DNA of 64,000 nt. Source: Candidatus Kaiserbacteria bacterium (GTDB taxonomy: Bacteria; Patescibacteriota; Minisyncoccia; Phycocordibacterales; UBA2100). The position numbers and the translations under genes were made by a program. Under the pieces are notes generated by a model. The model made no database searches. It was not told where the DNA came from and was given only the letters and a program-made list of their open reading frames with translations. Where the stretch lies: the NCBI GenBank assembly GCA_016432285.1, contig CP066682.1, forward strand, positions 352,933 to 416,932. The letters run 5' to 3'. This document shows, in pieces, positions 1,479 to 35,775 of this stretch. Each line of letters opens with the position of its first letter. Positions within the stretch are counted from its first letter, which is position 1.

Positions 1479-3845
1479 CTAGTACCCCTTGTTGCGAATG
1501 AGGATCTCGAGGAGTTGGCGCGGGAAAATTTGCGGCGATTCCGTGAGGGCCTGGTGGTAAAGCACAGTCGAGGGGGTGAGGCCTGGGAGCGTGTTGATCT
1601 CGATGATCGTCAGCTCACCCGTCCGGGTATGCACGAAGGCGTCGATGCGCGCATAGCCCGTGATACCGAGCTTTCTCGCGAGGCGTTCGATGCGCTCGCG
1701 GATTTTTTTGACGACCGCGGGCTTGATGACTTGCGGCGGTGGCGGCGTGAGGTTGACGCCGGTGCCGCCCTGGAATTTTTCTTCCACCGAAAGCACCTCG
1801 CCTTCGGCGACGGTGATAGAGGGGTTCAATGCGTGGATGCCGCCGGTTTTGCCGATTACGCCGATCGTGATCTCCACGAGACCGCTCTTTTTTGTGTGCT
1901 TCAGCCTGTTGTCGATCACGCGCAACGTGTCGGTCTCGATGAAGCGCTCGAAGATGAGATAGGGCGGCGCGGAGGGCGGCATGTCGATGATCGTCGTTTG
2001 GTTTTTGAAAGTACCGGGGTGCGCGTGCGCCGCGCGCGTGCGCACGAGCGCCAGGTAGGCCACGAGGTCGGAAGGCCCGTAGAGATGCACGACACCGGTG
2101 GAGCAGCCGTCGCCCCGGGGCTTTACGATGAGCGAGCGCGAGTGCAGCTCCTTCAAGGACGCGTGCCAGAATTTGCGCAGCGAGGCGTCGCTCATTTTGA
2201 GCAGCTCCGCCGTCTCCGCTATTTTTCCGGGGACGGCCCCGACGCCCTCGAGCTCGAGCGAGCGGACCTGCTCGGAGGTGGCCCATTTGTCGATGCAGAG
2301 CTTCGATGCTTCGGCGTCGGGGCCGTTCATCGGAATCCCGCGCTTTTGCATGAGTGTCTGGAGTGTACCATCCTCGCCTTCTCCCCCGTGGAGCGCAGCG
2401 AAGAGAAAGCGCGTCTCTTCCAAAAGCTCGTCGAGCGTCATGTGCGCGGGCTCGAAAAAGGTGGCCGCGTCTTTTTTGGCGGAAAAGCCGAGGTGGAGCC
2501 GGGCGCGCTCTTCGTAGGAGCGGAGCCGCTCCCTCGTGCGCGGATATTCCCGGCAGTTCTGGCTGATTTCCTCAACCGTGTGGTTCAAGGTGAGGTGATA
2601 CGGCAGGCGCCAGACGCTACCATCCGTATCAAGAAGGAATGGGCGGGGTTCGTAGGTGGGCGAGTTGCGCAGCTTCAGCCACACGTTGGTGCCGCTCATG
2701 AGCGACACCTGCCGCTCCGAAGTAGGGCCGCCGAAGAGCACTGAAACGGGTTTGCGCTCGGCTTTCGCAACCGACTTCTGCTGTGGCATCCTGAGGCTAT
2801 GCCGACGCGCTGCCGAACCGAGGATGTAGCGCAAGACGTCGCTGTGCGTCATGCCGACACGCGATCCCTGCTGGAAAAGGAAGCTGTTCTGCTCCATGCC
2901 GGAGACGGTGTTGAAGTCGCAAAACCAGATCTCGCCGGAAGGAAGGATCCATCCGTCGAATCGCGCGAAGTCGCGCATCCCGAAAAGCGCGAAAAGCTGC
3001 TCGGCTTGCGCCTGAATGCGCTCGATCGAGGCATCGTCGAATCGCGGCGGCGAATGGTAAGAGACGTGGCGCGAGGGAAGGTACTTCTTCCGGAAATCGA
3101 AAATCTGATGCTCGGCGTAATCGGTCTCGATCTCGGTCGGGGGGAGCGCCACGGGAATACCGAAGCGGTTTTGCAAAATAATCACCGTGAATTCCTTCCC
3201 CTCGGCAAACGGCTCCAAAACGAGCCGCGTGTCCATGCGTTTTGAAAAGAGCATACGCGCTCTCTCGAGGACCTCTCTTGGGGAGCCGACAGAGAAGACT
3301 CCGATCGACGAACCGCCACTTGCGGGCTTGATGACCGCGCGCTTGATCTTATGCTCATCAAAAAACTTCCGCGTGATCGAAGCGTGGTCGCGCCCGTATA
3401 TTTTCAGCACGACCGACGGCAGCGTGAAAAATCCATTCTCCCGGATGTACTCGTTGCCCGTGTGCTTGTCGAACGCCTTCTTGCAGCTTTCGGATCCTGA
3501 TCCGACAAACGGAATCTTGTGCTTTTCGAGAAATGCCTGCACGCCGCCATCTTCGCCATAGCTGCCGTGCATCACCGGAAAAACGATGTCGGTGCGACGC
3601 AGGGCTCGGACGAACTGTGCGGTACCGAGGGGTTTCGCCGTTTGCTTCAGCTTGAAGTCGAAATCGGAGGGAGTGTTGCTGTAGAGCTGGGCAGGGGAGA
3701 TCGCGTAGGCATTGCGTTTCTGGTCGAGGTAAAAGGGCACGATCTCAACGGAATCCGATGAGAGGTGATCGAGGACGGAGCGCGCCGAATTGAGCGATAT
3801 ACCGCGCTCCAGCGAGGGACCTCCGCAAATCAGTCCGACCTTCAT
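1479..3845 (-). CDS. ddl: tandem-fused double D-alanine--D-alanine ligase (two complete Ddl/ATP-grasp modules in one 788-aa polypeptide)
   Basis: Module 1 begins MKVGLICGGPSLERGISLNSA. Module 2 begins ~aa 385 with PVSVLFGGPTSERQVSLMSG. Both have ATP-grasp cores, and module 2 ends with the typical Ddl C-terminus (..INTLPGLT..S). Confidence 0.8.
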   Translation of the reverse strand: MKVGLICGGPSLERGISLNSARSVLDHLSSDSVEIVPFYLDQKRNAYAISPAQLYSNTPSDFDFKLKQTAKPLGTAQFVRALRRTDIVFPVMHGSYGEDGGVQAFLEKHKIPFVGSGSESCKKAFDKHTGNEYIRENGFFTLPSVVLKIYGRDHASITRKFFDEHKIKRAVIKPASGGSSIGVFSVGSPREVLERARMLFSKRMDTRLVLEPFAEGKEFTVIILQNRFGIPVALPPTEIETDYAEHQIFDFRKKYLPSRHVSYHSPPRFDDASIERIQAQAEQLFALFGMRDFARFDGWILPSGEIWFCDFNTVSGMEQNSFLFQQGSRVGMTHSDVLRYILGSAARRHSLRMPQQKSVAKAERKPVSVLFGGPTSERQVSLMSGTNVWLKLRNSPTYEPRPFLLDTDGSVWRLPYHLTLNHTVEEISQNCREYPRTRERLRSYEERARLHLGFSAKKDAATFFEPAHMTLDELLEETRFLFAALHGGEGEDGTLQTLMQKRGIPMNGPDAEASKLCIDKWATSEQVRSLELEGVGAVPGKIAETAELLKMSDASLRKFWHASLKELHSRSLIVKPRGDGCSTGVVHLYGPSDLVAYLALVRTRAAHAHPGTFKNQTTIIDMPPSAPPYLIFERFIETDTLRVIDNRLKHTKKSGLVEITIGVIGKTGGIHALNPSITVAEGEVLSVEEKFQGGTGVNLTPPPPQVIKPAVVKKIRERIERLARKLGITGYARIDAFVHTRTGELTIIEINTLPGLTPSTVLYHQALTESPQIFPRQLLEILIRNKGY

Positions 3846-5900: not shown

Positions 5901-7781
5901 TCAAACGCTCACGATAACCGGAATGACAATCGGGCGTTTCATAGTGCGCTGCAAGAGGAAGCGCGAGACGCTCTCCGCGAGGTCATCGCGGGCGGCATCG
6001 AGGTCGACGGCGCGCGGATTGCGCATTGAGCCTTCGACGGACTTGCGGATGATAAGGCGCGTCTGATCCATGAGCTCTTTGTTGTCGCGCAGATACACGA
6101 AACCGCGCGAGATGATGTCGGGAGATTTGTGGAGGCGACCGGTACGCCGGTCGACGGTGGCGACGACGACGCAAAAGCCCTCCTGCCCAAGCGCTTTTCG
6201 GTCGCGCATCAGCACATCGGAGAGCTCGGATACGGTGTGGCCCTCGACGACGCGAAGCTCCGAGGGCGCCTTCATGGGAAGCGTCGAGATTTTCTCACCC
6301 TTCACAATCTCGATGATCGAACCGTTGTCGGGGACCACGACGTGGTTTTTCGGTACACCGAGCTCCATGGCAAGGTGCGAGTGTACGCGGAGCATGTAGT
6401 GGTAGCCGTGCACTGGCACGAAGAACTTCGGCTTCACCTGCTTGTGAATCCACACCGCCTCCTCGCGATTGCCGTGGCCGGAGGCGTGCACGTCGCTCGC
6501 GTGATAGGTGATGATGTGCGCTCCCTGGCGCGAGAGGTTGTCCTTCAGCTTTTGCACCGCGCGCTCGTTGCCGGGAATCACAGAGGAGGAGAGCACCACG
6601 GTGTCGGTGGGCTGGAGCCGGATGTGCTTGTGCGATTTGTTGCCGATGCGAGCGAGCGAGGCAAACTCGTCGCCCTGCGCGCCGGTCGCGAGAATCACCA
6701 TCCGCTCCGGCGGGTACTCTCCCATGCTCTCCACGGGCACCACCGTGTCGTCTTTGTATTTGACGAGCCCAAGCTCGCGCGCGATCTCGATGTTGGTGCG
6801 CATGGAGCGGCCGTCGATCACGATCTTCTTGCCGTACTTTTCGGCAAAGGCGATTACGCGGATGAGCCGCTCAAGGTGCGAGGCGAACATCGCGATGATG
6901 AGGCGGCCGGTCGCGTCTTTGATGATGTTTTCGAGCGTGGTGTAGACGTTCTTCTCGGGGATCGAGAAGCCGGGCTGCCAGACGTTGGTCGAGTCCATGA
7001 GAAGGAGGAGCACGTTGCGACTCTTGAAGACGCCGAACTCACGCACTTCCTCTTCGCTCGGCTGCCCGTTGTCGTGGTTGAGCTTGATGTCGCCGGTAAA
7101 AACGACGTCGCCCCATGCGGTCTCGATGATGATTCCCATCGAATCCGGCACGGTGTGCGTAACGCCGAAAAAGCGCACAGTGTGATCGCCGAGTTTGATG
7201 TGCTCATCTTTTTCGACTTCGCGGATCTGTACGGGAGTCGTTTGCGCGAATTCCTCCTGGCGCTTCTTGATCATCATGCCGGTGAGGCGGCGCGTGTAGA
7301 TGGTCGGATTGCCGATGCGGTCGATCACGTAGGGAATACCGCCGATGTGATCGAGGTGACCGTGCGAAATGAGAAGCCCGCGGATCTTGTCGCGGCGCTC
7401 TTCGAGGTAGCCGGTGTTCGGGAGGATGTAATCGATGCCGGGCGTTTCTTCTTCGCGGAACTGGAATCCAGCGTCGAGAATGAAAATGTCGTTGCCGATC
7501 TCGACGGCCGTCATGTTGCGGCCGATTTCTTCGACGCCGCCAAGCGGAATCACGCGGACCGTTTCGGGGCCGATCGGCGGGGGCGTGGCGCCCGCGGGAC
7601 GCGGGCGGCCGCTCGGCGCCTGGTGCTCGACGCGTGTGCGGCGCTGCCGCGGCGGGTGCGCAGAGCGGCCGCGCCCGCCGTAGAATCGGCCGGGACGGTT
7701 GCGCTGCGGTCGCGCATTCGGGGAGGCAGAGCGCGGTCTCCCGTGAGAGCCTGCGCCGGGGTTTTGAGGAGGTGGGTTCAT
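5901..7781 (-). CDS. rnj: ribonuclease J (metallo-beta-lactamase/beta-CASP RNase) with a ~75-aa Arg/Pro/Gly-rich N-terminal extension
   Basis: Contains the HGHLDHIGG motif and beta-CASP region. Its start overlaps the upstream SBP gene stop by 4 nt (ATGA). Confidence 0.85.
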   Translation of the reverse strand: MNPPPQNPGAGSHGRPRSASPNARPQRNRPGRFYGGRGRSAHPPRQRRTRVEHQAPSGRPRPAGATPPPIGPETVRVIPLGGVEEIGRNMTAVEIGNDIFILDAGFQFREEETPGIDYILPNTGYLEERRDKIRGLLISHGHLDHIGGIPYVIDRIGNPTIYTRRLTGMMIKKRQEEFAQTTPVQIREVEKDEHIKLGDHTVRFFGVTHTVPDSMGIIIETAWGDVVFTGDIKLNHDNGQPSEEEVREFGVFKSRNVLLLLMDSTNVWQPGFSIPEKNVYTTLENIIKDATGRLIIAMFASHLERLIRVIAFAEKYGKKIVIDGRSMRTNIEIARELGLVKYKDDTVVPVESMGEYPPERMVILATGAQGDEFASLARIGNKSHKHIRLQPTDTVVLSSSVIPGNERAVQKLKDNLSRQGAHIITYHASDVHASGHGNREEAVWIHKQVKPKFFVPVHGYHYMLRVHSHLAMELGVPKNHVVVPDNGSIIEIVKGEKISTLPMKAPSELRVVEGHTVSELSDVLMRDRKALGQEGFCVVVATVDRRTGRLHKSPDIISRGFVYLRDNKELMDQTRLIIRKSVEGSMRNPRAVDLDAARDDLAESVSRFLLQRTMKRPIVIPVIVSV

Positions 7782-12679: not shown

Positions 12680-15600
12680 TTGAAGCACATGGGAACAACG
12701 ACCCGTGGAATTTTCAGTGTTGCGTTTTTCCTGATTTTCTACGCCTTTTTTCTTGTGCCACCTGCGGTGGCTACAATCGACGACTCCGCCGATCGAACGT
12801 GCGTGCCATTTCTTGCTGTATGCGGATGTGGTGAGACGTTGCAAAACAATACGTGCGTGAAGGTAACTTCCGAAAACACCGGTCTTAAGTCCAACGGTGT
12901 CAACATGAACGGATGCAAGTGCCAGAGCACGGAAAAACCGGCGGGTGGCACTTGCAGAGCGGTACGGGATTGCAAAGGAGAATGGTACGAGCAAAACGGC
13001 AAACGGGTCAACATCGATCCGAACGCCGAGAAGAATTTCGCGGATCTTTTGAAAGGACTTCCAAATCAACCTCCGAGCGGAGGTTCGGGACAGCAAGGGG
13101 GCGCTACACCTGATCTCTCGCCGCCGCAGCAAGCACCTTCGGAAACGAGCGATCATCAGGATTCAGAAAGCATTCAATCAGCGTTTGATCCTCTAACAGG
13201 GCAACCAATCGATCAGGGGAAGTCCGGCGATCAAAAGAATTGGGGCGAACTTCTTTCGGAGGACGAGTGGAATGATTTGGTAAAGCAAGATCAAAATCTG
13301 AGCAATCAATATCCGCCACCGACGCTGGACGAGGCGACACGGCTGCAACCAGGCTCGCCGGATACGCCATTTGATGTAGCGAAAATTGATCCGATCACGG
13401 GAGAGCCGACATACAGTGGTTTTCAAAACGGTCCGGTCCCAAACGATGAAACTGCTTCGGGGGATGAACCACGATCCGAACCGTCGTGGATGGATTCGGT
13501 CCGTGACTATGCCGGGAAAGCGTGGGACGCGATCAAGAATGAATTCGGCGGTGAGGCGGAGGCGGGTCAGGGATGCCCGAAATACAATTGTTGGGGCATC
13601 AAAAACGGCGGCAGCGGATATCAAAAATTCGGATCGGAAGAGGCCGCAGCCACACGATATCTTTCGAACTGGAAGGACTATGTCGACAAGGGATACAACA
13701 CTGTCGACAAGTATCTCAACCGATGGGTTGCCCCGAAGGAAGCCGGGACGGATCCCGAATACTATGGCCAGTATGTAAACGGAGTAAAACAAGCGATTGG
13801 CGGAAATCAGCTTGAGGCGGGCAACGCGGAGCAGGCGATCTCGATGATGAAAGCGCAAGCCCTCTACGAGCAGGGGGTCTCGGGCAGGAGCTTTCCGATC
13901 TCGGATCAGGCGATCGAGGCGGCTGCGCAACGAGTATTCGGATCGAGCTATTCCCGGGGGCCGGTGGAAGATATCGGCCCGGGAGCGGGAAGGAGTTTTG
14001 CCGCCGAGAGCTACGGCGACACGGATCGCTTTGCGCCGACGGAGGCACCCGCATGGGTGGCATCGACTCCCGGATCGACACCAGCTGATCTCGGTCTGCA
14101 ATCTGGGGTCTCTCCGTTTGGGTGGGGCAACAATTTCGACTCATACGGAGAGCCGTCCGATTCGCTCGTCGCGCAAACCGGTCCGGAAGAAACGTACGTA
14201 CCAAACGAGATCGCAAGCGGCGCGTTCGACATCGGTCCGCAGGATGTGCCGCCGCCTGTCCTCACAGACGCGCAAATCGGGGGAGGGTACAACGACCCGG
14301 ATTTCGACCCGTTCGGCGATTTCAATACGCCGGTAAACGAGCCCGCGACAGCGGACGCCGGGGATCAACAGCGCAACGAAGTCGATATTGCCGCCAACGA
14401 CGCCGAACGACAGGCGGAAATTGAGAGAGCACGAAACGAAGTCGACATCGCGGCCAACGATGCGGAGCGGCAGACGGAATTGGCTCGTGCCGAGGAGCGG
14501 CGCAACGAAGTCGATATTGCCGCCAGCGACGACGAGCGACGCCCGCTCCAGCCGAATCGCCAAGCGATCGAGCAGGCGCAGCGGGAGTATGTGGACGACT
14601 ACTTAAAGGAGTACGAGCAACGCCGTGAAGCGCAGCAACAGGCTGTAGCCAATGCGCAGAAGCAGAAGGCGCTCGACACCTTGAACGCGGCCGCGGCCGA
14701 TGTGAAAGATCGTGCCAATTCGATCGCGCAGACGGTCCGCGATCCGCAAAATCTCGACGTCAAGGATCTCGCCGCCGACGTGAAGAGCGCCCCCACCGAG
14801 CTCGCGCGTCTTCGCGCCGCCGCGCGCGAGGCGCTCGATAAGGGAGCGATCTCCAAAGAGCAGTACAACAACGTGATACGCGGGTCGGAAACGCTTCAGG
14901 GGATGGTCAGTGAGTACGCGAAGAATGACAAATATTTCAGCGAAGAATATAAAGGCCAGGTGCAAGGCGCTTTGCAGGGCAGGATTGAAACCGGCGAGAC
15001 GCGGGATCAGCTTGCGAAAGCCGGCAGCGCACTCGCGCAGGTAACCGACGTTCCGAAGACGTACACGCCGCCGCCGCGCACGCTCGGCTCAGACGCGAGC
15101 TCCGGCGTGAGCGATGCGGGGTACAGCCAGTCGCAGTCAGAAGGGTTGATCGACGGCGGCGCACTCGACTCGGGCTTCGGCCTCTCCTCGCAGCAGGTGG
15201 CCTCGCTCTACGACCAGCTCGAATTGGACGCGCAGGCGGATCAGCTGGTCGAGAGTGGGGCTCTCGACTCGGGCTTTGGCCTCACGTCGCCCCAGGTCGC
15301 ATCGCTCTACGACCATCTCGACTTGGAGAATAAAGTGGAGGGGATCGACTGGACGTCGGTTTCTTTCCACAGTCCATATACCGACACCGGTCTTTCGGAG
15401 GACATCAACGAGCAGATCCGCCTCGCGGCCGGTCCGCAGGAGTTCGTACCCGAAGAGCCGTTTGTGGAGGCGCGGCCTGATCGGAGCGGCCCGAACGATC
15501 AGGTTGCGATCAACGACGACAATCAAGTATTGCCGCTTGGTCAAAACAAGGAGGAGCTCGATCTTGAGCGGGGAGAATATGCGAAGTGGGACGACATCGT

Positions 15601-16822
15601 CCACTTTGCCGACGCGAAATCGTGGAACGACTTTGGGCAGGATGAGACGGATCGCAATTACCGCACCCCAGGCTTCCCGTCGGCTGCCGGTATCGACAAG
15701 GTCGCCGACGCGATCAGGGATGCCTCGAAAAACGTACTGGACGCATTTCGCAGCTCGGACGTGGAAGATGCGATCAAGAATTACAAAAGCCCCTACGGAG
15801 ACTACTTCGGCAACTACCTACAGTCACCGGATCCGTTCTCTCAAAGCGGCGAAGATCTGACGCGGCAGGTGCTGGCGTCCAACATTCCCGCGTCCGATCG
15901 CTTCACCCCAAGCGGGGAAGCGATTACTGAGGATGTCCTCGGGTCCAACTTCGCGCCGGTCGATTCGTCGGATCGAAGCGGCGAGGCGCTCACGCAAGAT
16001 GCGCTCGATTCCAGTTTCATCCCACCCGATTCGTTCGATCAGAGCGGGGAGGCTCTCACCGAATCCATCTCACTTTACAATCTGGCGGAATCGCAAAAGC
16101 TCATCGACGAAGGCTCGCTCGATTCTGGCTTCGACGGCTTCACCGGGGAGCAGGTAGCCGAAGCCTACCGAGACTACGCGCTGCGGAATACCGATTGGGA
16201 TCGACTCGTCTTGAACGACGACGTGCCGCAGGAAACACCTGAGGCCGATGTTTCCGATATACTGCCCGCGGATCCTTCCCAAATCGTTCCCGTAACGAAA
16301 CTCGCCGCACCAAATCAACTTATACCGAACGTGCCCGAGAAGCCGGCCGACGAGGTCAGTGCCGCCGACAAAACGGACGCGCAGTCTCCCGAAACTTCCG
16401 CCGAGGAAACTCCTGCGCAAAAGCCGCAGCTTCCAGCCGCCTGCTTCGGGCCGTCGGTCGCCGCGTGCAGTAAGGCGCTCGGCAAGGAGTGGAGCGAGAG
16501 CCGCAACGAGATCGCAAAGGATCTCGGAGTGAGCTGTACGCCCGGAAGCGCTTCCTGCAACAGGCAGATCCTAAAAGCGATCGTGGACCAAGGGGGCTTA
16601 CCACCGCCTTTGCCGCAGCCTCGAGATCCGTACTCGCGCGCGGCGCAGAATTATCCGACAGGGGACTCGCTCGTCAATTTCCTGAAAGCGGGAGGACTCC
16701 CGAGCGACTACCTCAGCCGCGCCGATTTCGCGAAGGAGAACGGCATCGACGGCTACAAAGGCACCGCGGCGCAAAACCTCCAGCTCCTCCAGTGTCTCCG
16801 AGACCCTTCCTGCAGGAAATAA
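12680..16822 (+). CDS. very large (1380 aa) secreted/surface protein: signal/TM anchor, N-terminal Cys-rich module, long acidic low-complexity region with several tandem repeat families, and a C-terminal Cys-containing module
   Basis: N-terminal hydrophobic segment (IFSVAFFLIFYAFFLVPPAVA). A Cys-rich segment spans aa 40-110. Tandem repeats include NEVDIAANDAERQxE (x3) and GALDSGFGLxSxQVASLYDxLxL (x2, with a third degenerate copy). The C-terminus has CFGPSVAACS...SCTPGSASC...LQCLRDPSC. Confidence 0.7.
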   Translation: MKHMGTTTRGIFSVAFFLIFYAFFLVPPAVATIDDSADRTCVPFLAVCGCGETLQNNTCVKVTSENTGLKSNGVNMNGCKCQSTEKPAGGTCRAVRDCKGEWYEQNGKRVNIDPNAEKNFADLLKGLPNQPPSGGSGQQGGATPDLSPPQQAPSETSDHQDSESIQSAFDPLTGQPIDQGKSGDQKNWGELLSEDEWNDLVKQDQNLSNQYPPPTLDEATRLQPGSPDTPFDVAKIDPITGEPTYSGFQNGPVPNDETASGDEPRSEPSWMDSVRDYAGKAWDAIKNEFGGEAEAGQGCPKYNCWGIKNGGSGYQKFGSEEAAATRYLSNWKDYVDKGYNTVDKYLNRWVAPKEAGTDPEYYGQYVNGVKQAIGGNQLEAGNAEQAISMMKAQALYEQGVSGRSFPISDQAIEAAAQRVFGSSYSRGPVEDIGPGAGRSFAAESYGDTDRFAPTEAPAWVASTPGSTPADLGLQSGVSPFGWGNNFDSYGEPSDSLVAQTGPEETYVPNEIASGAFDIGPQDVPPPVLTDAQIGGGYNDPDFDPFGDFNTPVNEPATADAGDQQRNEVDIAANDAERQAEIERARNEVDIAANDAERQTELARAEERRNEVDIAASDDERRPLQPNRQAIEQAQREYVDDYLKEYEQRREAQQQAVANAQKQKALDTLNAAAADVKDRANSIAQTVRDPQNLDVKDLAADVKSAPTELARLRAAAREALDKGAISKEQYNNVIRGSETLQGMVSEYAKNDKYFSEEYKGQVQGALQGRIETGETRDQLAKAGSALAQVTDVPKTYTPPPRTLGSDASSGVSDAGYSQSQSEGLIDGGALDSGFGLSSQQVASLYDQLELDAQADQLVESGALDSGFGLTSPQVASLYDHLDLENKVEGIDWTSVSFHSPYTDTGLSEDINEQIRLAAGPQEFVPEEPFVEARPDRSGPNDQVAINDDNQVLPLGQNKEELDLERGEYAKWDDIVHFADAKSWNDFGQDETDRNYRTPGFPSAAGIDKVADAIRDASKNVLDAFRSSDVEDAIKNYKSPYGDYFGNYLQSPDPFSQSGEDLTRQVLASNIPASDRFTPSGEAITEDVLGSNFAPVDSSDRSGEALTQDALDSSFIPPDSFDQSGEALTESISLYNLAESQKLIDEGSLDSGFDGFTGEQVAEAYRDYALRNTDWDRLVLNDDVPQETPEADVSDILPADPSQIVPVTKLAAPNQLIPNVPEKPADEVSAADKTDAQSPETSAEETPAQKPQLPAACFGPSVAACSKALGKEWSESRNEIAKDLGVSCTPGSASCNRQILKAIVDQGGLPPPLPQPRDPYSRAAQNYPTGDSLVNFLKAGGLPSDYLSRADFAKENGIDGYKGTAAQNLQLLQCLRDPSCRK

Positions 16823-24912: not shown

Positions 24913-24918
24913 TATACT
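24913..24918 (+). promoter_or_regulatory. extended -10 box TGgTATACT for rnpB
   Basis: ttggTATACTac lies 6-7 nt upstream of the P1 5' strand. Confidence 0.5.
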
Positions 24919-24922
24919 ACCC

Positions 24923-25342
24923 GTCTGCGTCAGGCAATCGCCCCGCGTAAGCGGGGAGGAAAGTCCGGACACGCACATTGTTCTTACGATGTAGCAGGGT
25001 AGCGGGTAACGCCCGTCCGAGTAATTCGAGGGATGCGAACAGAGACGCCGAAGCCGAGAGGCGACGGCTCCTACCGAGGTTTAACCTCGGTCGGATGAGG
25101 CCCGCAGCAATGCGGGAGTGCAACGGCAAAAATCCTACCTGCGTGCAAGGTCGTGACCCATGGGATAATGCGCTCCGAATAGTTCGGCTGATCCGGAGAG
25201 ATGAATAAAATCCGATTTTCCGAAATGTGCGGATCGCGTTATCCCACGGGTAGAACCGCTCGAGGTGATCGGCAACGATCATCCCAGATACATGATTGCC
25301 TCGTCCTTCGGGATCAGACAGAATCCGGCTCATGACGCAGAA
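24923..25342 (+). ncRNA. rnpB: RNase P RNA (bacterial type A)
   Basis: Conserved P4 motifs GGAGGAAAGTCCGGAC (5') and ACAGAATCCGGCT (3'). P1 pairs ctgcgtcagg (24925-34) with catgacgcag (25331-40). A terminator follows. Confidence 0.85.
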
Positions 25343-25346
25343 CGAA

Positions 25347-25376
25347 CCCCGCCGCAAGGCGGGGTTTGCTTTTTTA
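25347..25376 (+). terminator. rho-independent terminator after rnpB
   Basis: ccccgccgcaaggcgggg hairpin followed by tttgctttttt. Confidence 0.65.
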
Positions 25377-30405: not shown

Positions 30406-30443
30406 CATGAATATCCGCAACTTCTCAATCATCGCACCCATCG
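30406..30443 (+). pseudogene. degenerate duplicate of the lepA 5' end (pseudo-start MNIRNFSIIAPIV...), part of an att-like direct repeat
   Basis: 30406-30443 aligns to 30577-30614 (real lepA start) with 33/38 identities, including a 19-bp perfect DR aacttctcaatcatcgcac (30419-30437 and 30589-30607). The frame terminates after 55 codons. Confidence 0.6.
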
Positions 30444-30465
30444 TCGCGGCACGCCGCTCCCTGAG

Positions 30466-30555
30466 AACCCACGGTTCTCAGCGGTCGACCTGCGCGCACT
30501 CGGTCGACCTGCTCTCCGTCACGGGAAAACTACAGTTTTCCCGACCCCTTTCGAA
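30466..30555. repeat. copy A of a conserved ~90-nt structured intergenic element (perfect 9-bp stem hairpin cgggaaaac-N4-gttttcccg at 30522-30543)
   Basis: Shares aacccacggttYtc...cacgggaaaacNNNNgttttcccgacccctttcRaa with copy B at 35082-35160. The middle segment differs between copies but is palindromic in both. Confidence 0.7.
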
Positions 30556-30576
30556 CGATGTGAGCGATTTCTGAAT

Positions 30577-32358
30577 ATGCACATCAGAAACTTCTCAATC
30601 ATCGCACACATCGATCATGGCAAGTCGACGCTTGCGGATCGTATGCTCGAAATCACGGGTACGATCGAGCCGCGCCGCATGCAGGAGCAGGTGCTCGATC
30701 GCATGGACTTGGAGCGCGAGCGCGGCATCACGATCAAAATGCAGCCCGTGCGGATGCGGTGGAATCATGAGGGCGCCGATTACATTCTCAATCTTATCGA
30801 CACGCCCGGACACGTTGATTTTGCATACGAAGTCTCGCGAGCGCTCTCCGCGGTCGAGGGCGTGATTCTGCTCGTGGACGCGACGCAGGGCGTGGAGGCA
30901 CAGACGCTCTCCGTGCTTTCGGTGGCAAAGAGCCTCGGCCGCACCATCATTCCGGTCGTGTCGAAGATCGACGCGCCGGCGGCGCGTGTGGAGGAACATG
31001 TGGCGGAGCTTGCGCTCCTTTTGGGGTGCGAGGAGCGCGACGTGCTCCGGAGCTCCGGCAAGACGGGCGAAGGCGTGCCCGCTCTCTTGAACGCGATTGT
31101 CGAGCGGATCGCGCCGCCCGAGAGCACGGGCGAGAAGACCCAGGCCCTCGTCTTCGATTTCGGCTATTCGGATCATCGCGGCGTGATCATCTACATGCGC
31201 GTCTTTGGCGGTTCCGTAAAAAAGGGCGACGAGCTGCGCCTCGCGGCGGCCGACGCCTCGTTCACTGCGCTCGAAGTGGGAGTTTTGATGCCTGAAGAAA
31301 AGCCGTGCGGAGAGTTGCTCGCGGGAGAGATTGGCTACGTCGTTACCGGCATCAAAAAACCGGGCATCGCCTCCGTCGGCGACACGGTTACGGCCGCAAA
31401 AAATGCCGCGCCCCCGTTTTCTGGCTACCAAGCGCCGTCGCCCGTCATCTGGGCTTCCGCGTATCCGGAGTCGCAAGACGATTTGCCGCTCCTACGGCAG
31501 TCGCTCGAGCGCCTGCGGCTCTCGGATTCGTCGCTTTCGTATGAAGAAGAATCTTCGGGCGTGATGGGCAAGGGATTCCGCTGCGGCTTCCTTGGCATGC
31601 TGCACCTCGAGATCGTTATCGAGCGGCTCCGCCGGGAGTTTGGTCTCTCACTCGTCGTCACGCAACCGACGACCGTCTACGAAATCACACGCACCAACGG
31701 CAAGGTGGAGGAAATCTACGCGCCCGCGCGTTTTCCCGACGACGGAACGGTGGCGAAAGTGCGGGAAGTCTGGGCGAAGGTATTCGTGATCTCGCCGCCA
31801 GATTATATCGGTGGTGTGTCGCAGCTTTTGTATGAGCATGAGGCGAAGGTGGGGGAGACGGAAACGATGCCCGACGGCAAGATGCAGCTTTCGGCCGAGA
31901 TGCCGCTGCGGGAGCTCATGCGGGGATTCTTCGATCGACTCAAGAGCATCTCATCCGGATTCGCCTCGCTCTCGTACGAGCTTCAGGGATTGCGCGAGGC
32001 CGACGTCACGCGGCTCGACGTACTGGTGGCGGAAGAGCTCGTCCCGGCTTTTGCGCGCATCGTGAGCCGCCGGCGACTCCAGACGGAGGCCGAGGCCATG
32101 GTGGAAAGACTCGAAAAGCTTTTGCCGCGGCAGCTCTTCGAGCTGAAGATTCAGGCGAAGGTAGCCGGGAGGATCATCGCCTCACGTAGAAAATCAGCGA
32201 TGCGCAAAGACGTGACGGGCTATCTCTATGGCGGCGACGTGACGCGAAAGATGAAACTGCTCGAAAAACAAAAACGCGGCAAAAAGAAAATGCTCGCGCG
32301 CGGCAAGGTGGATATACCCCACGATGTTTTCCTAAAGGTGGTGCGGGAGACCAACTAG
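30577..32358 (+). CDS. lepA: elongation factor 4 (LepA)
   Basis: N-terminus IRNFSIIAHIDHGKSTLADR, G-domain motifs and the LepA C-terminal domain. Length 593 aa. Confidence 0.9.
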   Translation: MHIRNFSIIAHIDHGKSTLADRMLEITGTIEPRRMQEQVLDRMDLERERGITIKMQPVRMRWNHEGADYILNLIDTPGHVDFAYEVSRALSAVEGVILLVDATQGVEAQTLSVLSVAKSLGRTIIPVVSKIDAPAARVEEHVAELALLLGCEERDVLRSSGKTGEGVPALLNAIVERIAPPESTGEKTQALVFDFGYSDHRGVIIYMRVFGGSVKKGDELRLAAADASFTALEVGVLMPEEKPCGELLAGEIGYVVTGIKKPGIASVGDTVTAAKNAAPPFSGYQAPSPVIWASAYPESQDDLPLLRQSLERLRLSDSSLSYEEESSGVMGKGFRCGFLGMLHLEIVIERLRREFGLSLVVTQPTTVYEITRTNGKVEEIYAPARFPDDGTVAKVREVWAKVFVISPPDYIGGVSQLLYEHEAKVGETETMPDGKMQLSAEMPLRELMRGFFDRLKSISSGFASLSYELQGLREADVTRLDVLVAEELVPAFARIVSRRRLQTEAEAMVERLEKLLPRQLFELKIQAKVAGRIIASRRKSAMRKDVTGYLYGGDVTRKMKLLEKQKRGKKKMLARGKVDIPHDVFLKVVRETN

Positions 32359-32508
32359 CCCGTGATGATCGCGAGGACGCCCGGCGCAAAGAAAATCACC
32401 ATGCCGATGATGATGAGGACGGCGACGACGCTCCAGATGGCGTTGACGATCCGTTTGGTACGCTTGTGAAAAAGAAAGCTCATAGGTGAAGTGGTACGAT
32501 TATAGCGT

Positions 32509-32886
32509 ATGAGCTGGAGTCGGCAAAGGAACGATCTCGGCCGCAGGCTCTTGAGGCGGCTGGGGCTCCTCGCGCTTCTTGGGGTCGTCGTTTTTGCCAT
32601 CTCGGGCGTATGGGGAGTCTTTGGCAAGGCGCGGGACTCGCAGACACTCCGCGCGGAGGCAGAAGTGGCACGCAACGACCTCCTTTCGCGCGAGGCGCAG
32701 CTCGAAGCCGATTTGGAGAAGCTGCGTACCGACCGCGGCGTCGAGGAAGAGCTCCGTACGCAGTATTCGCTCGCCGGGGAAGGCGAGCGGCTCATCGTAA
32801 TCGTCGATCCCTCGAGCACGACCCCGATCAAGGCGACCTCTTCGCCGATCAAGCTGTGGTTCCAAAAGATTTTCCCCTGGTGGTGA
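32509..32886 (+). CDS. septum formation initiator family protein (FtsB/DivIC-like)
   Basis: Single TM, then a coiled coil, then the conserved EEELRTQYSLAGEGERLIVIVD motif. The minus-strand ORF 32355..32852 is its antisense shadow. Confidence 0.7.
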   Translation: MSWSRQRNDLGRRLLRRLGLLALLGVVVFAISGVWGVFGKARDSQTLRAEAEVARNDLLSREAQLEADLEKLRTDRGVEEELRTQYSLAGEGERLIVIVDPSSTTPIKATSSPIKLWFQKIFPWW

Positions 32887-32888
32887 TG

Positions 32889-32894
32889 TATAGT
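32889..32894 (+). promoter_or_regulatory. -10 box TGTATAGT for tRNA-Gly
   Basis: gatgTATAGTatt lies 9 nt upstream of the tRNA 5' end. Confidence 0.45.
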
Positions 32895-32903
32895 ATTCCG
32901 ACC

Positions 32904-32974
32904 GCGGGATTAGTTTAGTGGTAGAACGGCTGCTTCCCAAGCAGCAGATACGGGTTCGATTCCCGTATCCCGCA
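32904..32974 (+). tRNA. tRNA-Gly (anticodon CCC); CCA not encoded
   Basis: Acceptor GCGGGAT/ATCCCGC, anticodon stem GCTGC/GCAGC with loop TTCCCAA, T-arm CGGGTTCGATTCCCG. Confidence 0.85.
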
Positions 32975-33010
32975 CACGAGCGAGCGCTTGGCCGATTTCC
33001 CGTACTCGCA

Positions 33011-33364
33011 CTACAGGTACTTTTTTCCGTATGTCCGCATTTCGTCCACCACCTTCCGGAGGGCCCTGCCTTGCGAAGTGAGGCGATACTCCACGTAAGG
33101 TGGGAGGCGCTTCAGCGCAGTGCGAGCCACGAGGCCGCGCCTTTCGAGCCGGCGGAGCGTCTTGGTGAGCGTGCGGGTACTCATACCGAGCGATTCGTCG
33201 AGATGTCCAAAACGGCGCGGGCCGTCCAAAAGATCGCGCACGACGAGGAGGGAGCAGGCGTCCCCGAGGAGATCGGCCACCCGGGCGACGGGGCAGTCGG
33301 CGCAGAGGTCTTCGCGTTGCTTTTTGGTGCGCAACATCAGACCACGGTAGCACGAGTTATCCAC
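33011..33364 (-). CDS. HxlR-family (MarR-like winged-helix) transcriptional regulator
   Basis: CPVARVADLLGDACSLLVVRDLLDGPRRFGHLDESLGMSTRTLTKTLRRLERRGLV is a typical HxlR helix-turn-helix. The start may be the internal ATG 27 nt downstream. Confidence 0.8.
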   Translation of the reverse strand: MDNSCYRGLMLRTKKQREDLCADCPVARVADLLGDACSLLVVRDLLDGPRRFGHLDESLGMSTRTLTKTLRRLERRGLVARTALKRLPPYVEYRLTSQGRALRKVVDEMRTYGKKYL

Positions 33365-33424
33365 TTTACAAAGTAAAGCGACTATCTATACTGAGTCTCT
33401 ACCAACAAACTTTACTAAGTAAAG
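33364..33424. promoter_or_regulatory. two palindromic operator boxes CTTTAC-N3-GTAAAG (33364-33378 and 33410-33424) in the divergent hxlR/LUD promoter region
   Basis: Both boxes are perfect 6+6 inverted repeats with identical half-sites, 46 bp apart. A TATACT -10-like box lies between them (33388-33393). Confidence 0.55.
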
Positions 33425-33467
33425 CAACTGAAATCGAGCGGCGTCAGCAGAAGCGCCACATCAACGT

Positions 33468-34085
33468 ATGGAATATACGAAACTTGCAACTGAAGAGATC
33501 ATCGAGAAGGCAGTGCACGAGCTCGAAGCGAGGCGTTTCAAGACCGCCCGTGTGCAGAATCGCGCCGAAGCGCTCGAATACATCAAGAAGACTATTCCCG
33601 CAGGTGCGTCGGTCATGAACGGTTCGTCGGTGACGCTCGAGGAGATCGGCTTTGTCGATTACCTCAAAGCTGGCGGGCACCCGTGGAGAAATCTGCACGA
33701 GGAAATTCTTAATGAGCCCGACAAAGACAAGCGCGCGCAGGCGCGCATGCATGCGGTCGTTTCCGATTACTATCTCGGCAGCGTGCATGCGCTTACGGAG
33801 GGTGGTGAGATGGTGATCGGCTCCAACACCGGAAGCCAACAGCCGCACCTCTCGTACACCTCACAAAATCTCATCTTGGTCGTCGGCACACAAAAGATCG
33901 TACCGGACCTGCCGGCGGCCTTGGAGCGGCTCGAAAAGCACGTCATCCCCCTCGAAGACGAGCACATGAAGGGGCTGTACGGCTCTGGCACGCAGCACAA
34001 CAAGACGCTGATTCTGTACGGGGAGAGCAGCATGATGAAGCGGAATGCCACCGTGCTCCTCGTAGAGGAAAAACTCGGTTTCTAG
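33468..34085 (+). CDS. LUD-domain protein (LutC/YkgG, DUF162-like lactate-utilisation family)
   Basis: Conserved LUD-domain pattern (..G.S.T..E.G.....L......H...YY.GS.HA.TE.G..V..S..GS.....). It is divergent from hxlR. Confidence 0.65.
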   Translation: MEYTKLATEEIIEKAVHELEARRFKTARVQNRAEALEYIKKTIPAGASVMNGSSVTLEEIGFVDYLKAGGHPWRNLHEEILNEPDKDKRAQARMHAVVSDYYLGSVHALTEGGEMVIGSNTGSQQPHLSYTSQNLILVVGTQKIVPDLPAALERLEKHVIPLEDEHMKGLYGSGTQHNKTLILYGESSMMKRNATVLLVEEKLGF

Positions 34086-34124
34086 GCGATATGGTATTAT
34101 CAGGTATCACTAAAAAATAATCGT

Positions 34125-34367
34125 ATGGCTACAAAACAAAACGTAACTATTTACTCGACCCCGACCTGCCACTTCTGCCACATGGCGAAGGACTTTTTTG
34201 CCGCCAACAAGATTCAGTTCACCGACTACAACGTTGCGACCGATCTCGAAAAGCGCAAAGAGATGGTAGAAAAGAGCGGTCAGATGGGCGTGCCCGTCAT
34301 CACGATCGGCAAAGAGACCATCGTCGGCTACGACGAGGATCGCCTCAAGGAGCTGCTCGCAGTCTAG
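34125..34367 (+). CDS. glutaredoxin-like protein (NrdH/YruB type, CxxC = CHFC)
   Basis: 80 aa. IYSTPTCHFCHMAKDFF...GVPVITIGKETIVGYDEDRLKELL is a classic Grx fold. Confidence 0.85.
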   Translation: MATKQNVTIYSTPTCHFCHMAKDFFAANKIQFTDYNVATDLEKRKEMVEKSGQMGVPVITIGKETIVGYDEDRLKELLAV

Positions 34368-34384
34368 TGCCCTCGGCAGGAATC
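34366..34384. repeat. 19-bp perfect direct repeat agtgccctcggcaggaatc duplicating the 3' end of tRNA-Arg (second copy 34525-34543, inside the tRNA)
   Basis: Exact 19/19 match 159 bp apart. The intervening DNA also holds an inverted partial copy of the tRNA T-arm (34470-34485, ttcgattcctgc). Confidence 0.7.
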
Positions 34385-34526
34385 TCCCTCGACTCTCGGC
34401 TCGCCGTCGCTCGCCTCGGTCTGGGCACCGCCTCGCTGCTCGGCCTGCTGGCCTCGCATCGCTCCGGCGTTCGATTCCTGCACGCGCCATGCAGCGGCAC
34501 GGCGCTCTCGATCACTTGCTTCGCAG

Positions 34527-34598
34527 TGCCCTCGGCAGGAATCGAACCCACATCTCTCCCTTAGGACGGGATAGCTCTATCCATTGAGCTACGAGGGC
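34527..34598 (-). tRNA. tRNA-Arg (anticodon CCT); CCA not encoded
   Basis: Reverse complement folds as acceptor GCCCTCG/CGAGGGC, D-arm GCTCAATGGATAGAGC, anticodon loop GTCCTAA, T-loop TTCGATT. Confidence 0.8.
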
Positions 34599-34632
34599 GA
34601 GGCCGCAACTATAGCATGCTAAGATTTCAGGC

Positions 34633-34923
34633 ATGGATCCGAGTCAGGAAACGCTGAGAGAGATTCTTCGTCTCACACAGGAGAACAACCGCATGCTCCA
34701 CAAAATGCGCCGCAGCGCGTTTTGGGGCGGGATCCTGAAGCTCCTTCTGTACGCCGCGCTCCTCGGAATTCCGCTGTGGCTCTACATCACGTACCTTGGC
34801 CCCATGATGCAGGAGGTCATACAAACGTATCGCGACATCCAGGGCACCGGCGCCAACGTCTCGGCGCAGTTCACTGATTTTCAGGGAATGCTTCAGCAGT
34901 TCAAGGATAATTTCTCGCAGTAA
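34633..34923 (+). CDS. small (96 aa) hypothetical membrane protein
   Basis: Helical N-terminus plus one TM (ILKLLLYAALLGIPLWLYITYL). No family recognised. Confidence 0.4.
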   Translation: MDPSQETLREILRLTQENNRMLHKMRRSAFWGGILKLLLYAALLGIPLWLYITYLGPMMQEVIQTYRDIQGTGANVSAQFTDFQGMLQQFKDNFSQ

Positions 34924-34953
34924 AACAGGTCGACTTCCAATAAAAAGATCTGG

Positions 34954-34959
34954 TATAGT
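34954..34959 (+). promoter_or_regulatory. extended -10 box TGgTATAGT upstream of tRNA-Phe
   Basis: atctggTATAGTacc, ~40 nt upstream of the tRNA. Confidence 0.4.
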
Positions 34960-34999
34960 ACCGCAATCGCCCGGAGAGGTTCGTTTCTGGGCGTCGCTT

Positions 35000-35073
35000 G
35001 CCCAGATAGCTCAGGTAGTAGAGCATTCCCCTGAAGAGGGAAGGGTCGTCAGTGCAAATCTGACTCTGGGCAC
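35000..35073 (+). tRNA. tRNA-Phe (anticodon GAA)
   Basis: Acceptor GCCCAGA/TCTGGGC, D-arm GCTCAGGTAGTAGAGC, anticodon loop CTGAAGA, T-arm GTCAGTGCAAATCTGAC, discriminator A. Confidence 0.85.
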
Positions 35074-35081
35074 CTCTTGGA

Positions 35082-35160
35082 AACCCACGGTTTTCCAACG
35101 CTCGCTTCGCGAGCTGTCTTCCTCCACGGGAAAACAATTGTTTTCCCGACCCCTTTCAAA
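35082..35160. repeat. copy B of the conserved structured element (hairpin cgggaaaac-aatt-gttttcccg at 35127-35148), 8 nt downstream of the tRNA-Phe 3' end
   Basis: Aligns with copy A (30466-30555). Flanks and hairpin stems are identical. The central segment holds a different palindrome (gctcgcttcgcgagc). Confidence 0.7.
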
Positions 35161-35296
35161 GCCCAGAAGAGCCGTGCCTGCGCACGGCTCGTGTCGGATT
35201 TGCAAGCCGGAGCCATGTCGCCTTGGCGACAGGCGAGGCCGGGCAGGAGCCACTTAACGAGCGCAGCGAGTTTAGTGAGCTGTCGCCAAATCTGAC

Positions 35297-35315
35297 TCTG
35301 GGCACACAAAAAAAT
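35297..35315. repeat. 19-bp perfect direct repeat caaatctgactctgggcac duplicating the tRNA-Phe 3' end (first copy 35055-35073)
   Basis: Exact 19/19 match 242 bp downstream. This is an att-like duplication bracketing element copy B. Confidence 0.7.
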
Positions 35316-35355
35316 CCGGCCTGTCAGTCGACAGGCCGGTGCACACTTCGTTTGT

Positions 35356-35775
35356 TCAGGCGGCATTTTGTTCGCGCCTCCGGGTTTCTGAGGATCGCGC
35401 TTTTCGACGCTCAGCCTCCTGCCGCGCGGCTTTTCCCGGCCACAAAATCCCCGCTCCCCGGTGTTCGCGGTTCAGGTACAGCGCCAGAACGGACATTCCG
35501 TACGAGTACCACCCGCAGAGGGTCAGCAGAATGAACATCACCTCGTTGGACGTTCCGTTCTTTAAGAAGTTGTGTGGATACTTGCGAACCGTGATCGCGT
35601 ACACAACTCCGGCTCCCGCGAATCCGGCCGGGAGCCAGGTGACCCCGATCACGCCGATGAGGATATACGAAAAGTTGGACCACGCTTCTGTCATGGGATT
35701 CCCCCGCGCTGAAAAACGTATGCGGATCAGCCCGCACCTAGTGGAGAAGCCTACGGATTTGGGGCGGAAGGTCAA
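35356..35775 (-). CDS. hypothetical membrane protein (3 TM helices), basic C-terminal tail
   Basis: A terminator (ccggcctgtc..gacaggccgg plus T7) sits immediately after its stop on the minus strand. The start may be the internal ATG (MTEAWSNF...). Confidence 0.4.
   Translation of the reverse strand: MTFRPKSVGFSTRCGLIRIRFSARGNPMTEAWSNFSYILIGVIGVTWLPAGFAGAGVVYAITVRKYPHNFLKNGTSNEVMFILLTLCGWYSYGMSVLALYLNREHRGAGILWPGKAARQEAERRKARSSETRRREQNAA

Follow-up and report, generated by a model that had tools for sequence, protein, structure and literature searches.

Certain integrative elements target tRNA 3' ends or the ends of protein genes (tRNA-integrating prophages and islands; phage 21 and e14, both at icd), and their phage attachment site (attP) supplies a replacement for the gene end. 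Target choice can also be programmed by nucleic acids, as in the bridge RNA of IS110, the guide RNAs of TnpB and IscB, and the homing spacers of CRISPR-associated transposons that match tRNA genes. The CTX phage is described as having a folded single-stranded attP that is integrated by host Xer recombinases with exchange of one strand pair (PMC3442271), and integron attC sites as recombining in the form of a folded single strand, replication being needed to resolve the junction (PMC4792948). Among Patescibacteria, self-splicing group I introns have been reported in tRNA genes, which they split at the anticodon loop (35/36) (PMC13011429). The present analysis concerns a 64,000-nt stretch of a Candidatus Kaiserbacteria genome (contig CP066682.1, positions 352,933 to 416,932; hereafter the window, with coordinates counted from its first letter) and a short insertion at the 3' end of its tRNA-Phe gene.

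This insertion is, with high confidence, a mobile and attachment-site-like (att-like) one belonging to two families of structured elements, designated here type 1 and type 2. The best overall explanation, which we consider probable, is that two protein-less structured elements make up a 232-bp insertion at the tRNA-Phe 3' end that would be non-autonomous, att-like and mobilised in trans. As with the integrative elements of tRNAs and gene ends, a direct repeat of the gene end is found on both sides (19 of 19 nt at tRNA-Phe), the gene is rebuilt from an element-borne, synonymously diverged copy, and empty sites occur in relatives. Unlike those elements, the ones described here have no integrase in cis and measure 130-230 bp in all, a single conserved scaffold serves many unrelated targets, and an inverted copy of the target is always present.

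The 19-mer CAAATCTGACTCTGGGCAC had exactly two perfect occurrences in the window, at 35055-35073 and 35287-35305 (expectation by chance 0.01; two or more matches in 0 of 100 shuffles), spaced by 232 nt with 213 nt between them. The initial annotation of this stretch, made from the letters alone, had reported the perfect 19-bp repeat and located its first copy correctly; its second copy had been placed 10 nt too high, at 35297-35315, and the spacing of 242 nt and intervening length of 223 nt given with it are superseded by the values above. Copy 1 lies inside an intact tRNA-Phe(GAA) gene on the plus strand (35000-35074 according to ARAGORN, 35000-35072 according to Rfam, 63 bits) and runs from C56 of a non-canonical T-loop, TGCAAAT, to one base past the discriminator. 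Copy 2, also on the plus strand, is an orphan 3' fragment of tRNA-Phe with no tRNA-like sequence upstream. It is immediately followed by an A-run and then by a strong hairpin (35316-35339) which, with its T-run on the minus strand, resembles an intrinsic terminator and represents the native flank of the convergent gene, abutting repeat copy 2.

Decay of a tandem tRNA gene, in which copy 2 would be the last piece of a second tRNA-Phe, had been named in the annotation as the reading that could overturn an att duplication, and the 19-nt identity taken alone would fit it. The 55 nt preceding copy 2 aligned with the 5' part of the tRNA at a score of -5, compared with -7.4 +/- 3.8 for shuffles, and 299 of 1000 shuffles aligned at least as well; this absence of similarity excludes tandem decay, whose probability we consider negligible. 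Besides, type-2 bodies that follow tRNA-Gly and tRNA-Val in other loci are homologous to this 55-nt stretch, and no second tRNA was detected there by ARAGORN or Rfam.

Conserved non-coding scaffolds cover the sequence between the repeats. The half nearest tRNA-Phe is a type-1 scaffold, copy B (35077-35157, plus strand), composed of hairpin 1 (35077-35098), hairpin 2 (35100-35114), a linker TGTCTTCCTCCA (35115-35126), hairpin 3 (CGGGAAAAC-AATT-GTTTTCCCG, 35127-35148) and a 3' segment ACCCCTTTC (35149-35157). The reality of this conserved element, already noticed in the annotation, was confirmed by a covariance-model match at 35097-35159 (E ~1e-9), but hairpin 1 begins at 35077, only 3 nt past the tRNA and not 8. 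The other part is a type-2 element (35161-35286), whose own strand is the minus strand and which holds a third, inverted copy of the tRNA-Phe 3' end that had been overlooked. This inverted copy, X' (35161-35204, given on the plus strand), is split. Its first part, GCCCAGA (35161-35167), is the complement of the acceptor TCTGGGC, and its second, GTCGGATTTGCA (35193-35204), is an inverted copy of the T-arm, complementary to TGCAAATCTGAC with one G.T pair; a hairpin GAGCC-GTGCCTGCGCAC-GGCTC (35169-35190, with GTGCCTGCGCAC as its loop) separates them, and the same split layout was found in another locus (L158; related loci are cited by their L numbers). The type-2 scaffold body of ~80 nt (CCGGAGCCATG ... 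CACTTAACGAGCGCAGCGAGTTTAGTGAGCTGTCGC, 35205-35286) was recognised by nhmmer and pattern matches and is assigned to the minus strand by analogy with type 1. It consists of CCGGAGCCATG, a hairpin GTCGCCTTGGCGAC (35217-35230) and AGGCGAG...CACTTAACGAGC...GAGTTTAGTGAGCTGTCGC, followed by the sense fragment that constitutes repeat copy 2.

Both of the further hairpins previously proposed for the insert were therefore recovered, at 35169-35190 and 35217-35230, while its description as one element plus additional hairpins has to be replaced: two scaffold families are combined in it, and it also holds the target in inverted form. The statement that it contains no ORF holds insofar as no credible gene is present; mechanical ORFs do cross the region (35077-35295 on the plus strand, 35049-35366 on the minus strand). 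It is this inverted target copy that best distinguishes the family, and it lies outside the classical integrase footprint.

Homologues of the type-2 element, found with nhmmer and pattern searches, adjoin other tRNAs in L159, L110, L088, L016, L158 and L052. They directly follow tRNA-Gly (L159, L110), tRNA-Val (L088), tRNA-Phe (L158) and others; in the L159 copy at tRNA-Gly, the body was about 80% identical as judged by eye and the repeat measured 27 nt. In all of them the tRNA is followed by a tail, then by a split antisense copy, the body and a sense fragment, an order that mirrors the type-1 architecture as it would appear on the opposite strand; their left end (...CTCAC...CTCGCTGCGCTCG) is similar to the type-1 left terminus. 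The insert of the window is a type-2 element on the minus strand with a type-1 scaffold as its tail; read in the plus direction, the same insert presents a type-1 scaffold with a type-2 body as tail, X' being common to both. This composite arrangement explains the rare orientation of copy B, with the tRNA in sense and on the left.

A sister insertion was found 4.6 kb upstream. When the whole window was searched for repeats, a duplicate of the opening 37 nt of the ORF at 30577 (LepA according to Pfam) was recovered 170 nt upstream (30407-30443), with 86% identity. This truncated duplicate of the lepA 5' end (MNIRNFSIIAPI, plus strand) finishes with seven element-specific nucleotides, CCCATCG, which correspond to a His to Pro change. 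A type-1 element, copy A (30444-30576, plus strand), separates it from the intact lepA (30577-32358, plus strand), of which the first 37 nt (30577-30613) form the second repeat copy. On the plus strand, copy A comprises hairpin 0 (30446-30457), hairpin 1 (30461-30481), hairpin 2 (30483-30509), hairpin 3 (30522-30543), ACCCCTTTC (30544-30552) and an X' (CGATGTGAGCGAT, 30556-30568) complementary to the AHID codons of the intact lepA, followed by an 8-nt tail. The hairpin-1 stems of the two window copies differ yet remain paired (CTGAGAA/TTCTCAG versus TTGGAAA/TTTCCAA), with the loop CCCACGG, and the two copies also share a variable hairpin 2, a linker TCC-NCCAC, the invariant hairpin 3 (CGGGAAAAC-N4-GTTTTCCCG) and ACCCCTTTC.

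Insertion polymorphism was observed at both sites. A set of 80 metagenome loci was retrieved with LepA (best identity 82%), the LepA relatives being of groundwater type, and the gene order lepA, tRNA-Gly(ccc), tRNA-Arg(cct), tRNA-Phe was conserved among relatives. The annotation had proposed an empty-site comparison at tRNA-Phe, which gave the following outcome: in the closest relatives with the same odd T-loop (L121, L128, L133-L136) synteny is kept, the site is empty and an unrelated flank directly follows the tRNA. In L128 and L136, this flank leads into a homologue of the RNase H-like gene lying further downstream in the window. Other relatives have a decayed type-1 copy at tRNA-Phe, in the usual antisense orientation (L159), or the second scaffold type (L141, L154, L158). 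At lepA, the type-1 element was restricted to the window and L122 among the 80 loci, the site being empty in L120, L123, L124, L127, L134 and L136 and occupied by a shorter hairpin insert in several loci; in L123, the covariance model detected a type-1 copy 33 nt after tRNA-Arg. In an empty allele, ACAAAAAAATCC would come immediately after ...CTGGGCAC. Perfect repeats, 50-79 nt long and extending over a genome-specific trailer or 5' untranslated region (UTR), together with tandem or remnant copies (L019, L076), point to recent activity.

Several other observations were made around the two sites. An independent assembly (L200, Logan SRR12113422) is 100% identical to window positions 30708-35057; its contig ends in the T-loop of tRNA-Phe, 2 nt into repeat copy 1, a break that may reflect coverage or a population variant, and is thus uninformative on occupancy. 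No record identical to the LepA protein of the window was found. Between repeat copy 2 and the RNase H-like gene, the window has a small ORF of 108-139 aa (35356-35775, minus strand) without Pfam match, and the RNase H-like homologues of L128 and L136 are much closer to tRNA-Phe than in the window; the small ORF may therefore be specific to the lineage or belong to a larger insertion. In L121, L125, L128, L133 and L135, a third and shorter kind of insert directly precedes lepA, in the form of a 30-50-nt hairpin ending ...CTAACGGGGCARG and situated at or in a duplicated lepA 5' fragment. In L135, the initial 48 nt of lepA are present as two tandem copies, of which the first is broken up by this hairpin. 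The start of lepA is a hot spot for small insertions in the lineage of the window.

One and the same scaffold was found at many targets. Scanning one genome per species for the exact pattern GGGAAAAC-N4-GTTTTCCCGACCCC gave at least 119 loci with a type-1 core, nearly all in metagenome-assembled genomes of the Patescibacteria or candidate phyla radiation (Saccharibacteria, Parcubacteria lineages, Berkelbacteria, Kazan and WS2), and the covariance model added divergent copies beyond the exact pattern. In the window, Rfam 15 recognised tRNA and RNase P alone at the gathering threshold, and in 18 related loci Rfam found tRNA and rRNA alone; with E values up to 10, neither of the two window copies matched a family, the best sub-threshold hit reaching 18.8 bits (E = 0.33). 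Full-text literature searches found no description of these elements, which does not prove that none exists. The data define two widespread families of tiny structured elements targeting gene ends, new in having neither an Rfam family nor a description that we could find.

The common layout emerged when all copies were oriented on the scaffold strand and the tRNAs were mapped. In 64 instances representing 17 isotypes, the core had on its right, at a distance of 33-125 nt, a tRNA encoded by the other strand, and the scaffold was antisense to the tRNA in 64 of 65 tRNA cases. At 62 tRNA-linked loci, an antisense copy of the 3' end (X) was accompanied by a sense copy from T-loop to acceptor (X'), ~6 nt after the core, and then by the intact tRNA. 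From left to right, the tRNA type consists of X, which extends from the very 3' end to the T-stem/T-loop boundary; a left terminus, in most cases ATCTCAC or TCGAAC, with (G)TCGC and then a variable hairpin 0 behind it; the scaffold; X' in sense, made of GTTCGAATCC, T-stem and acceptor; a tail of 12-100 nt, often with a terminator-like hairpin; and the intact tRNA. At protein genes, the left copy extends from a few nucleotides before the ATG to a conserved N-terminal motif and is followed by the scaffold, X', a short tail and the intact gene. Besides the 64 tRNA 3' ends, targets included 14 GTPase 5' ends (EF-G and LepA, at their AHID G1 motif), a glycosyltransferase, and two further motifs, one Mur-ligase-like (GLG) and one DinB-like (IIGHLDMDAFFAAVE); the target was unclassified in 21 instances.

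Two further points concern these targets. A type-1 group with unidentified target (L021, L031, L083, L103, L114 and others) has the left flank ...CCACCCTCCCCCGTCGC and, on the right, an extra hairpin followed by ACGGGTACTCCCTCC...; in L031, complements of this right flank were seen again at 2.5 and 3.0 kb downstream, where Rfam found no RNA gene. Non-canonical T-loops occur in the tRNA-Phe of the window (35053-35059) and in those of L121, L128, L133-L136, L146 and L161 (TGCAAAT, TGCAAGT, TGCGAGT, GCGCAMT); they replace TTCGAAT and hence are without the usual T54-Psi55, and most type-1 X' begin with GTTCGAATCC.

A covariance model was seeded by hand from 19 gap-free copies and the 112 matches were realigned. 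In this alignment, 97.6% of the paired cells of the scaffold were complementary pairs, against 85.0% after shuffling, and changes on both sides were seen in 14 of the 17 pairs. The covariation score was 0.274, compared with 0.070 for shuffled alignments (0 of 500 shuffles reached the observed value) and at most 0.056 when partners were slid. Divergent members outside the reach of the exact pattern keep hairpin 3 through compensatory changes (GGGGAACC/GGTTCCCC, GGAGGGGA/TCCCCTCC). By these sequence comparisons, the scaffold is a structure under selection. Wobble pairs on the scaffold strand (20 G.T against 7 A.C) modestly favour folding of this strand, as RNA or as single-stranded DNA (ssDNA). 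RNAalifold applied to a MAFFT alignment recovered hairpin 3 alone because hairpin 1 was misregistered, a problem solved by the hand-seeded model.

The first base of the hairpin-1 loop was strongly associated with the linker base after TTCC (C with G, U with A): loops CAGC and CCTC occur with G, TTGC, TAGC and TCGC with A, and loops ending in AC with T. This could reflect a tertiary pair or pseudoknot, or subfamily structure. In L036, two type-1 copies 0.3 kb apart (3123-3192 and 3432-3503), at tRNA-Asp and tRNA-Met, belong to different hairpin-1 subfamilies and have the same hairpin-3 loop (CCAG) and following bases, which could result from exchange between elements at hairpin 3; in other genomes with two copies, the hairpin-3 loop was not always common to both.

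Selection on structure might also be expected of a cis-acting RNA with a processing or regulatory role, in which X and X' would form a closing P1-like stem or an RNase III site, X' might pair with the start of the downstream gene, and mobility would be secondary. The covarying helices fit this proposal, as do the folds of both window inserts, which are more stable than those of shuffles (z = -3.4 and -3.9), and the capacity of X' to pair with X or with the intact gene copy. Both window copies would moreover be co-transcribed with tRNA-Phe or lepA. A promoter-like site (TCGACT-18-TATAGT, 34930-34959, plus strand, a consensus match only) precedes tRNA-Phe and no plus-strand terminator was found between the tRNA and the insert, so that the type-1 scaffold would be read as a tRNA-Phe trailer. 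However, the antisense orientation in 64 of 65 cases puts the scaffold outside the tRNA transcript, the same scaffold is found at functionally unrelated genes, orthologous sites mostly have no scaffold, no Rfam family was matched, and the gene-end duplications are left unexplained. A primarily cis-acting function is thus unlikely.

The duplicated gene ends provided evidence on their origin. In diverged repeats at protein targets, 17, 12 and 58 differences fell on codon positions 1, 2 and 3, respectively, and 51 codon differences were synonymous against 17 non-synonymous. This synonymous-site bias implies that the two gene-end copies each had a history as coding sequence, in different lineages, prior to their joining; the element thus carries its own copy of the gene end, as predicted for an attP-borne end and not by neutral decay of an in-situ duplication. 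The truncated copy ends in ~7 element-specific nucleotides that are found again in unrelated genomes. Those of the lepA type, CCCATCG (His to Pro), are found even in L122, whose own gene has CACATGTTG, and those of the tRNA type are ATCTCAC in place of TTCGAAC. Truncated tRNA copies cease to match where the T-stem meets the T-loop, a median of 17 nt from the 3' end. Across the junction, X' is complementary to the intact target and not to the truncated copy (12 versus 3 cases for proteins, 44 versus 1 for tRNAs).

A retroelement comparable to a short interspersed element (SINE) was considered with respect to these junctions. Scaffold RNA would be copied in trans by a reverse transcriptase and primed at the nicked target, the repeats would represent long target-site duplications made in situ, and X' would arise by snap-back or template switching on the target. 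Repeat lengths varying from 12 to 85 nt, with many repeats perfect and including genome-specific flank, would fit this scheme, as would the wobble bias towards folding of the scaffold strand and the complementarity of X' to the intact target across the junction, as if it had been copied at insertion. The synonymous-site bias, in contrast, indicates that one copy came from another lineage and not from in-situ fill-in, and the terminal CCCATCG and ATCTCAC recur in unrelated genomes; these two observations contradict a simple fill-in target-site duplication. Furthermore, no reverse transcriptase was found near any copy among the at least 119 loci, no A-tail or comparable 3' signature was seen, and group II introns are reported to be absent from Patescibacteria (PMC13011429). 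We therefore regard retrotransposition as unlikely, although not negligible.

No enzyme linked to the elements was found. The 37 ORFs of the window contained no recombinase, transposase or reverse transcriptase domain according to Pfam, and all-against-all clustering of ORFs from the 8-kb neighbourhoods of the at least 119 loci returned only EF-G, which is itself a target, and housekeeping families. The 213-nt insert has no integrase gene. The initial interpretation of the repeat as the attachment footprint of an integrase is accordingly retained for an att-site-like duplication made by inserted mobile DNA and abandoned for an integrase in cis. Cargo was found in one instance: in L011, two element copies of 274 nt (353-626 and 7252-7525), 97% identical, flank 6.9 kb of defence-type genes at tRNA-Asn (GmrSD/HNH nuclease, EcoRI-type methylase, SDH protease, AbiEii/AbiEi), and Pfam detected no integrase, recombinase, reverse transcriptase or transposase in this island. 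The tail can thus hold cargo, and the arrangement suggests that elements can bracket or carry it.

The L011 island, with scaffolds on either side of its cargo, could also recall deletion scars, i.e. attL-attR remnants of larger integrase-encoding prophages or islands whose interior was lost, for which repeats that restore the gene end are typical. Such an origin appears quite unlikely, since more than 100 loci have the same minimal size with a complete scaffold, no integrase recurs in the 8-kb neighbourhoods or occurs in L011, the type-1 core had 0 matches among 2.9 million viral contigs, and the scaffold is under structural selection across phyla.

For the preferred reading of elements mobilised in trans, we infer that insertion takes place by recombination between the gene-end copy of the element and the chromosomal gene, which would be rebuilt, the crossover falling just outside the ~7-nt heterologous segment next to the scaffold. 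Target choice would be encoded in the nucleic acid of the element and exerted by base pairing, not by a sequence-specific protein, because the arms differ completely among tRNA, GTPase, Mur and DinB targets. Two options would be equally compatible with the data: X' may pair with the gene-end copy of the element, the folded single strand being a duplex mimic of the target by analogy with CTX-phage attP and integron attC, or X' may pair directly with the target as a guide. The scaffold would recruit a recombinase or another enzyme encoded elsewhere in the genome and presumed to perform catalysis, and ssDNA, a double-stranded DNA circle or RNA are candidate intermediates. A specific folded-strand or guide mechanism is possible, if short of probable. 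More tentatively still, these may belong to a hitherto undescribed class of programmable, nucleic-acid-guided integrative elements in which a conserved folded scaffold of ~90 nt recruits a host enzyme, while X' and the gene-end copy specify by base pairing the insertion site, including that of cargo in the tail.

Compared with CTX-like phages and integrative mobile elements exploiting Xer (IMEX; PMC3442271) and with attC (PMC4792948), the elements are similar in lacking an integrase of their own or in the putative use of a folded single strand, and in having two inverted site copies able to mimic a duplex, which in the known systems is mismatched at its centre; the order X', tail, repeat and the ~7-nt mismatched segment beside the scaffold give the same geometry. 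Inverted site copies able to fold into a mimic of the target duplex are present in the window at 35161-35204 and 35287-35305. The targets, on the other hand, are tRNA 3' ends and 5' ends of protein genes and not dif, the site used by CTX phage and IMEX. Contrary to attC, it is the central scaffold that is conserved here, the paired arms changing with the target, which is not attI. Similarity to the nucleic-acid-programmed systems mentioned above resides in a conserved structured scaffold beside a variable segment complementary to the target and in universally conserved targets, a parallel that serves as a lead only. The present elements differ in having no linked gene for a DEDD, TnpB or Cas protein and in carrying the target in sense as well, and their guide role is putative.

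Several points weigh against this reading. Copy B has the orientation found in 1 of 65 cases, which the composite arrangement alone accounts for. Hairpin 3 hardly varies in sequence and, instead of a hairpin, could represent a duplex palindrome bound by a dimeric protein. Mismatches in the X:X' helix comprised 6 G.T and 15 A.C, without G.T excess or plus-strand bias in the output of a noisy automated stem finder, so that selection for X:X' pairing in the folded strand is not demonstrated. Long perfect repeats with genome-specific flank could also arise by in-situ duplication, and the empty sites are those of genus-level relatives (LepA identity 75-82%), not of strains of one species. Finally, neither excised forms nor circle junctions were observed, nor any empty allele at strain level, and no enzyme was identified.

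Other known types of element were also compared. Miniature inverted-repeat transposable elements (MITEs) and cis-mobilizable elements (CIMEs) are likewise small, non-coding, multi-copy, patchy in distribution and devoid of their own enzyme, and no autonomous parent element of the present families is known. A MITE is excluded by the absence of intrinsic terminal inverted repeats, the sole inverted repeat, X/X', being target-derived and changing with the target, and by flanking repeats of 12-85 nt that are gene-end-specific and, when diverged, differ synonymously, instead of 2-10-bp target-site duplications. An integron cassette is excluded by the absence of R''(RYYYAAC)/R'(GTTRRRY) boxes: AAC...GTT comes only from the tRNA T-loop, and the lepA type has ...ATCG/CGAT.... 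Scaffolds of IS200/IS605 or TnpB/IscB were rejected for want of an Rfam match (IS605-orfB, HEARO) up to E 10, for junctions that vary by target in place of a fixed 4-5-nt motif and for the long duplications, which those scaffolds do not show. The group I introns of Patescibacteria (PMC13011429) share the phylum, the association with tRNA and a structured RNA without ORF, but here tRNA-Phe is intact, the insert follows its 3' end and no intron model matched. A retron or other reverse-transcribed non-coding RNA was discarded in view of the absence of an adjacent reverse transcriptase and of any recurrent neighbour family save the targets.

The remainder of the window contained features unrelated to the insertions. 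A bacterial class A RNase P RNA (117 bits) lies at 24922-25348, overlapped by a 146-aa ORF on the opposite strand (24917-25357) that is probably spurious. Imperfect tandem repeats with periods of 60-69 nt and 99 nt and 78-81% identity (14372-14548 and 15132-15327) are inside a 1380-aa ORF (12680-16822), which thus encodes a repetitive protein. A 788-aa ORF (1479-3845, minus strand) matches both the N- and the C-terminal domain of D-Ala-D-Ala ligase, each in two stretches, and looks like a tandem or fused double Ddl. The GC skew of the window was not decisive for the replication strand.

Patescibacteria have tiny genomes with few recognised mobile elements, and the type-1 scaffold marks more than 100 insertions at the most conserved sequences of these genomes, bracketing a defence island at least once (L011). 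Annotation can be misled by the orphan tRNA fragments and truncated 5' gene copies to which the inserts give rise. If target choice does reside in the sequence of the element, it would constitute a new route of site-specific integration without an element-encoded enzyme and possibly a programmable insertion tool. The use of universally conserved gene ends as targets would let an element move between distant Patescibacteria, and the inserts offer markers of horizontal transfer among uncultured lineages.

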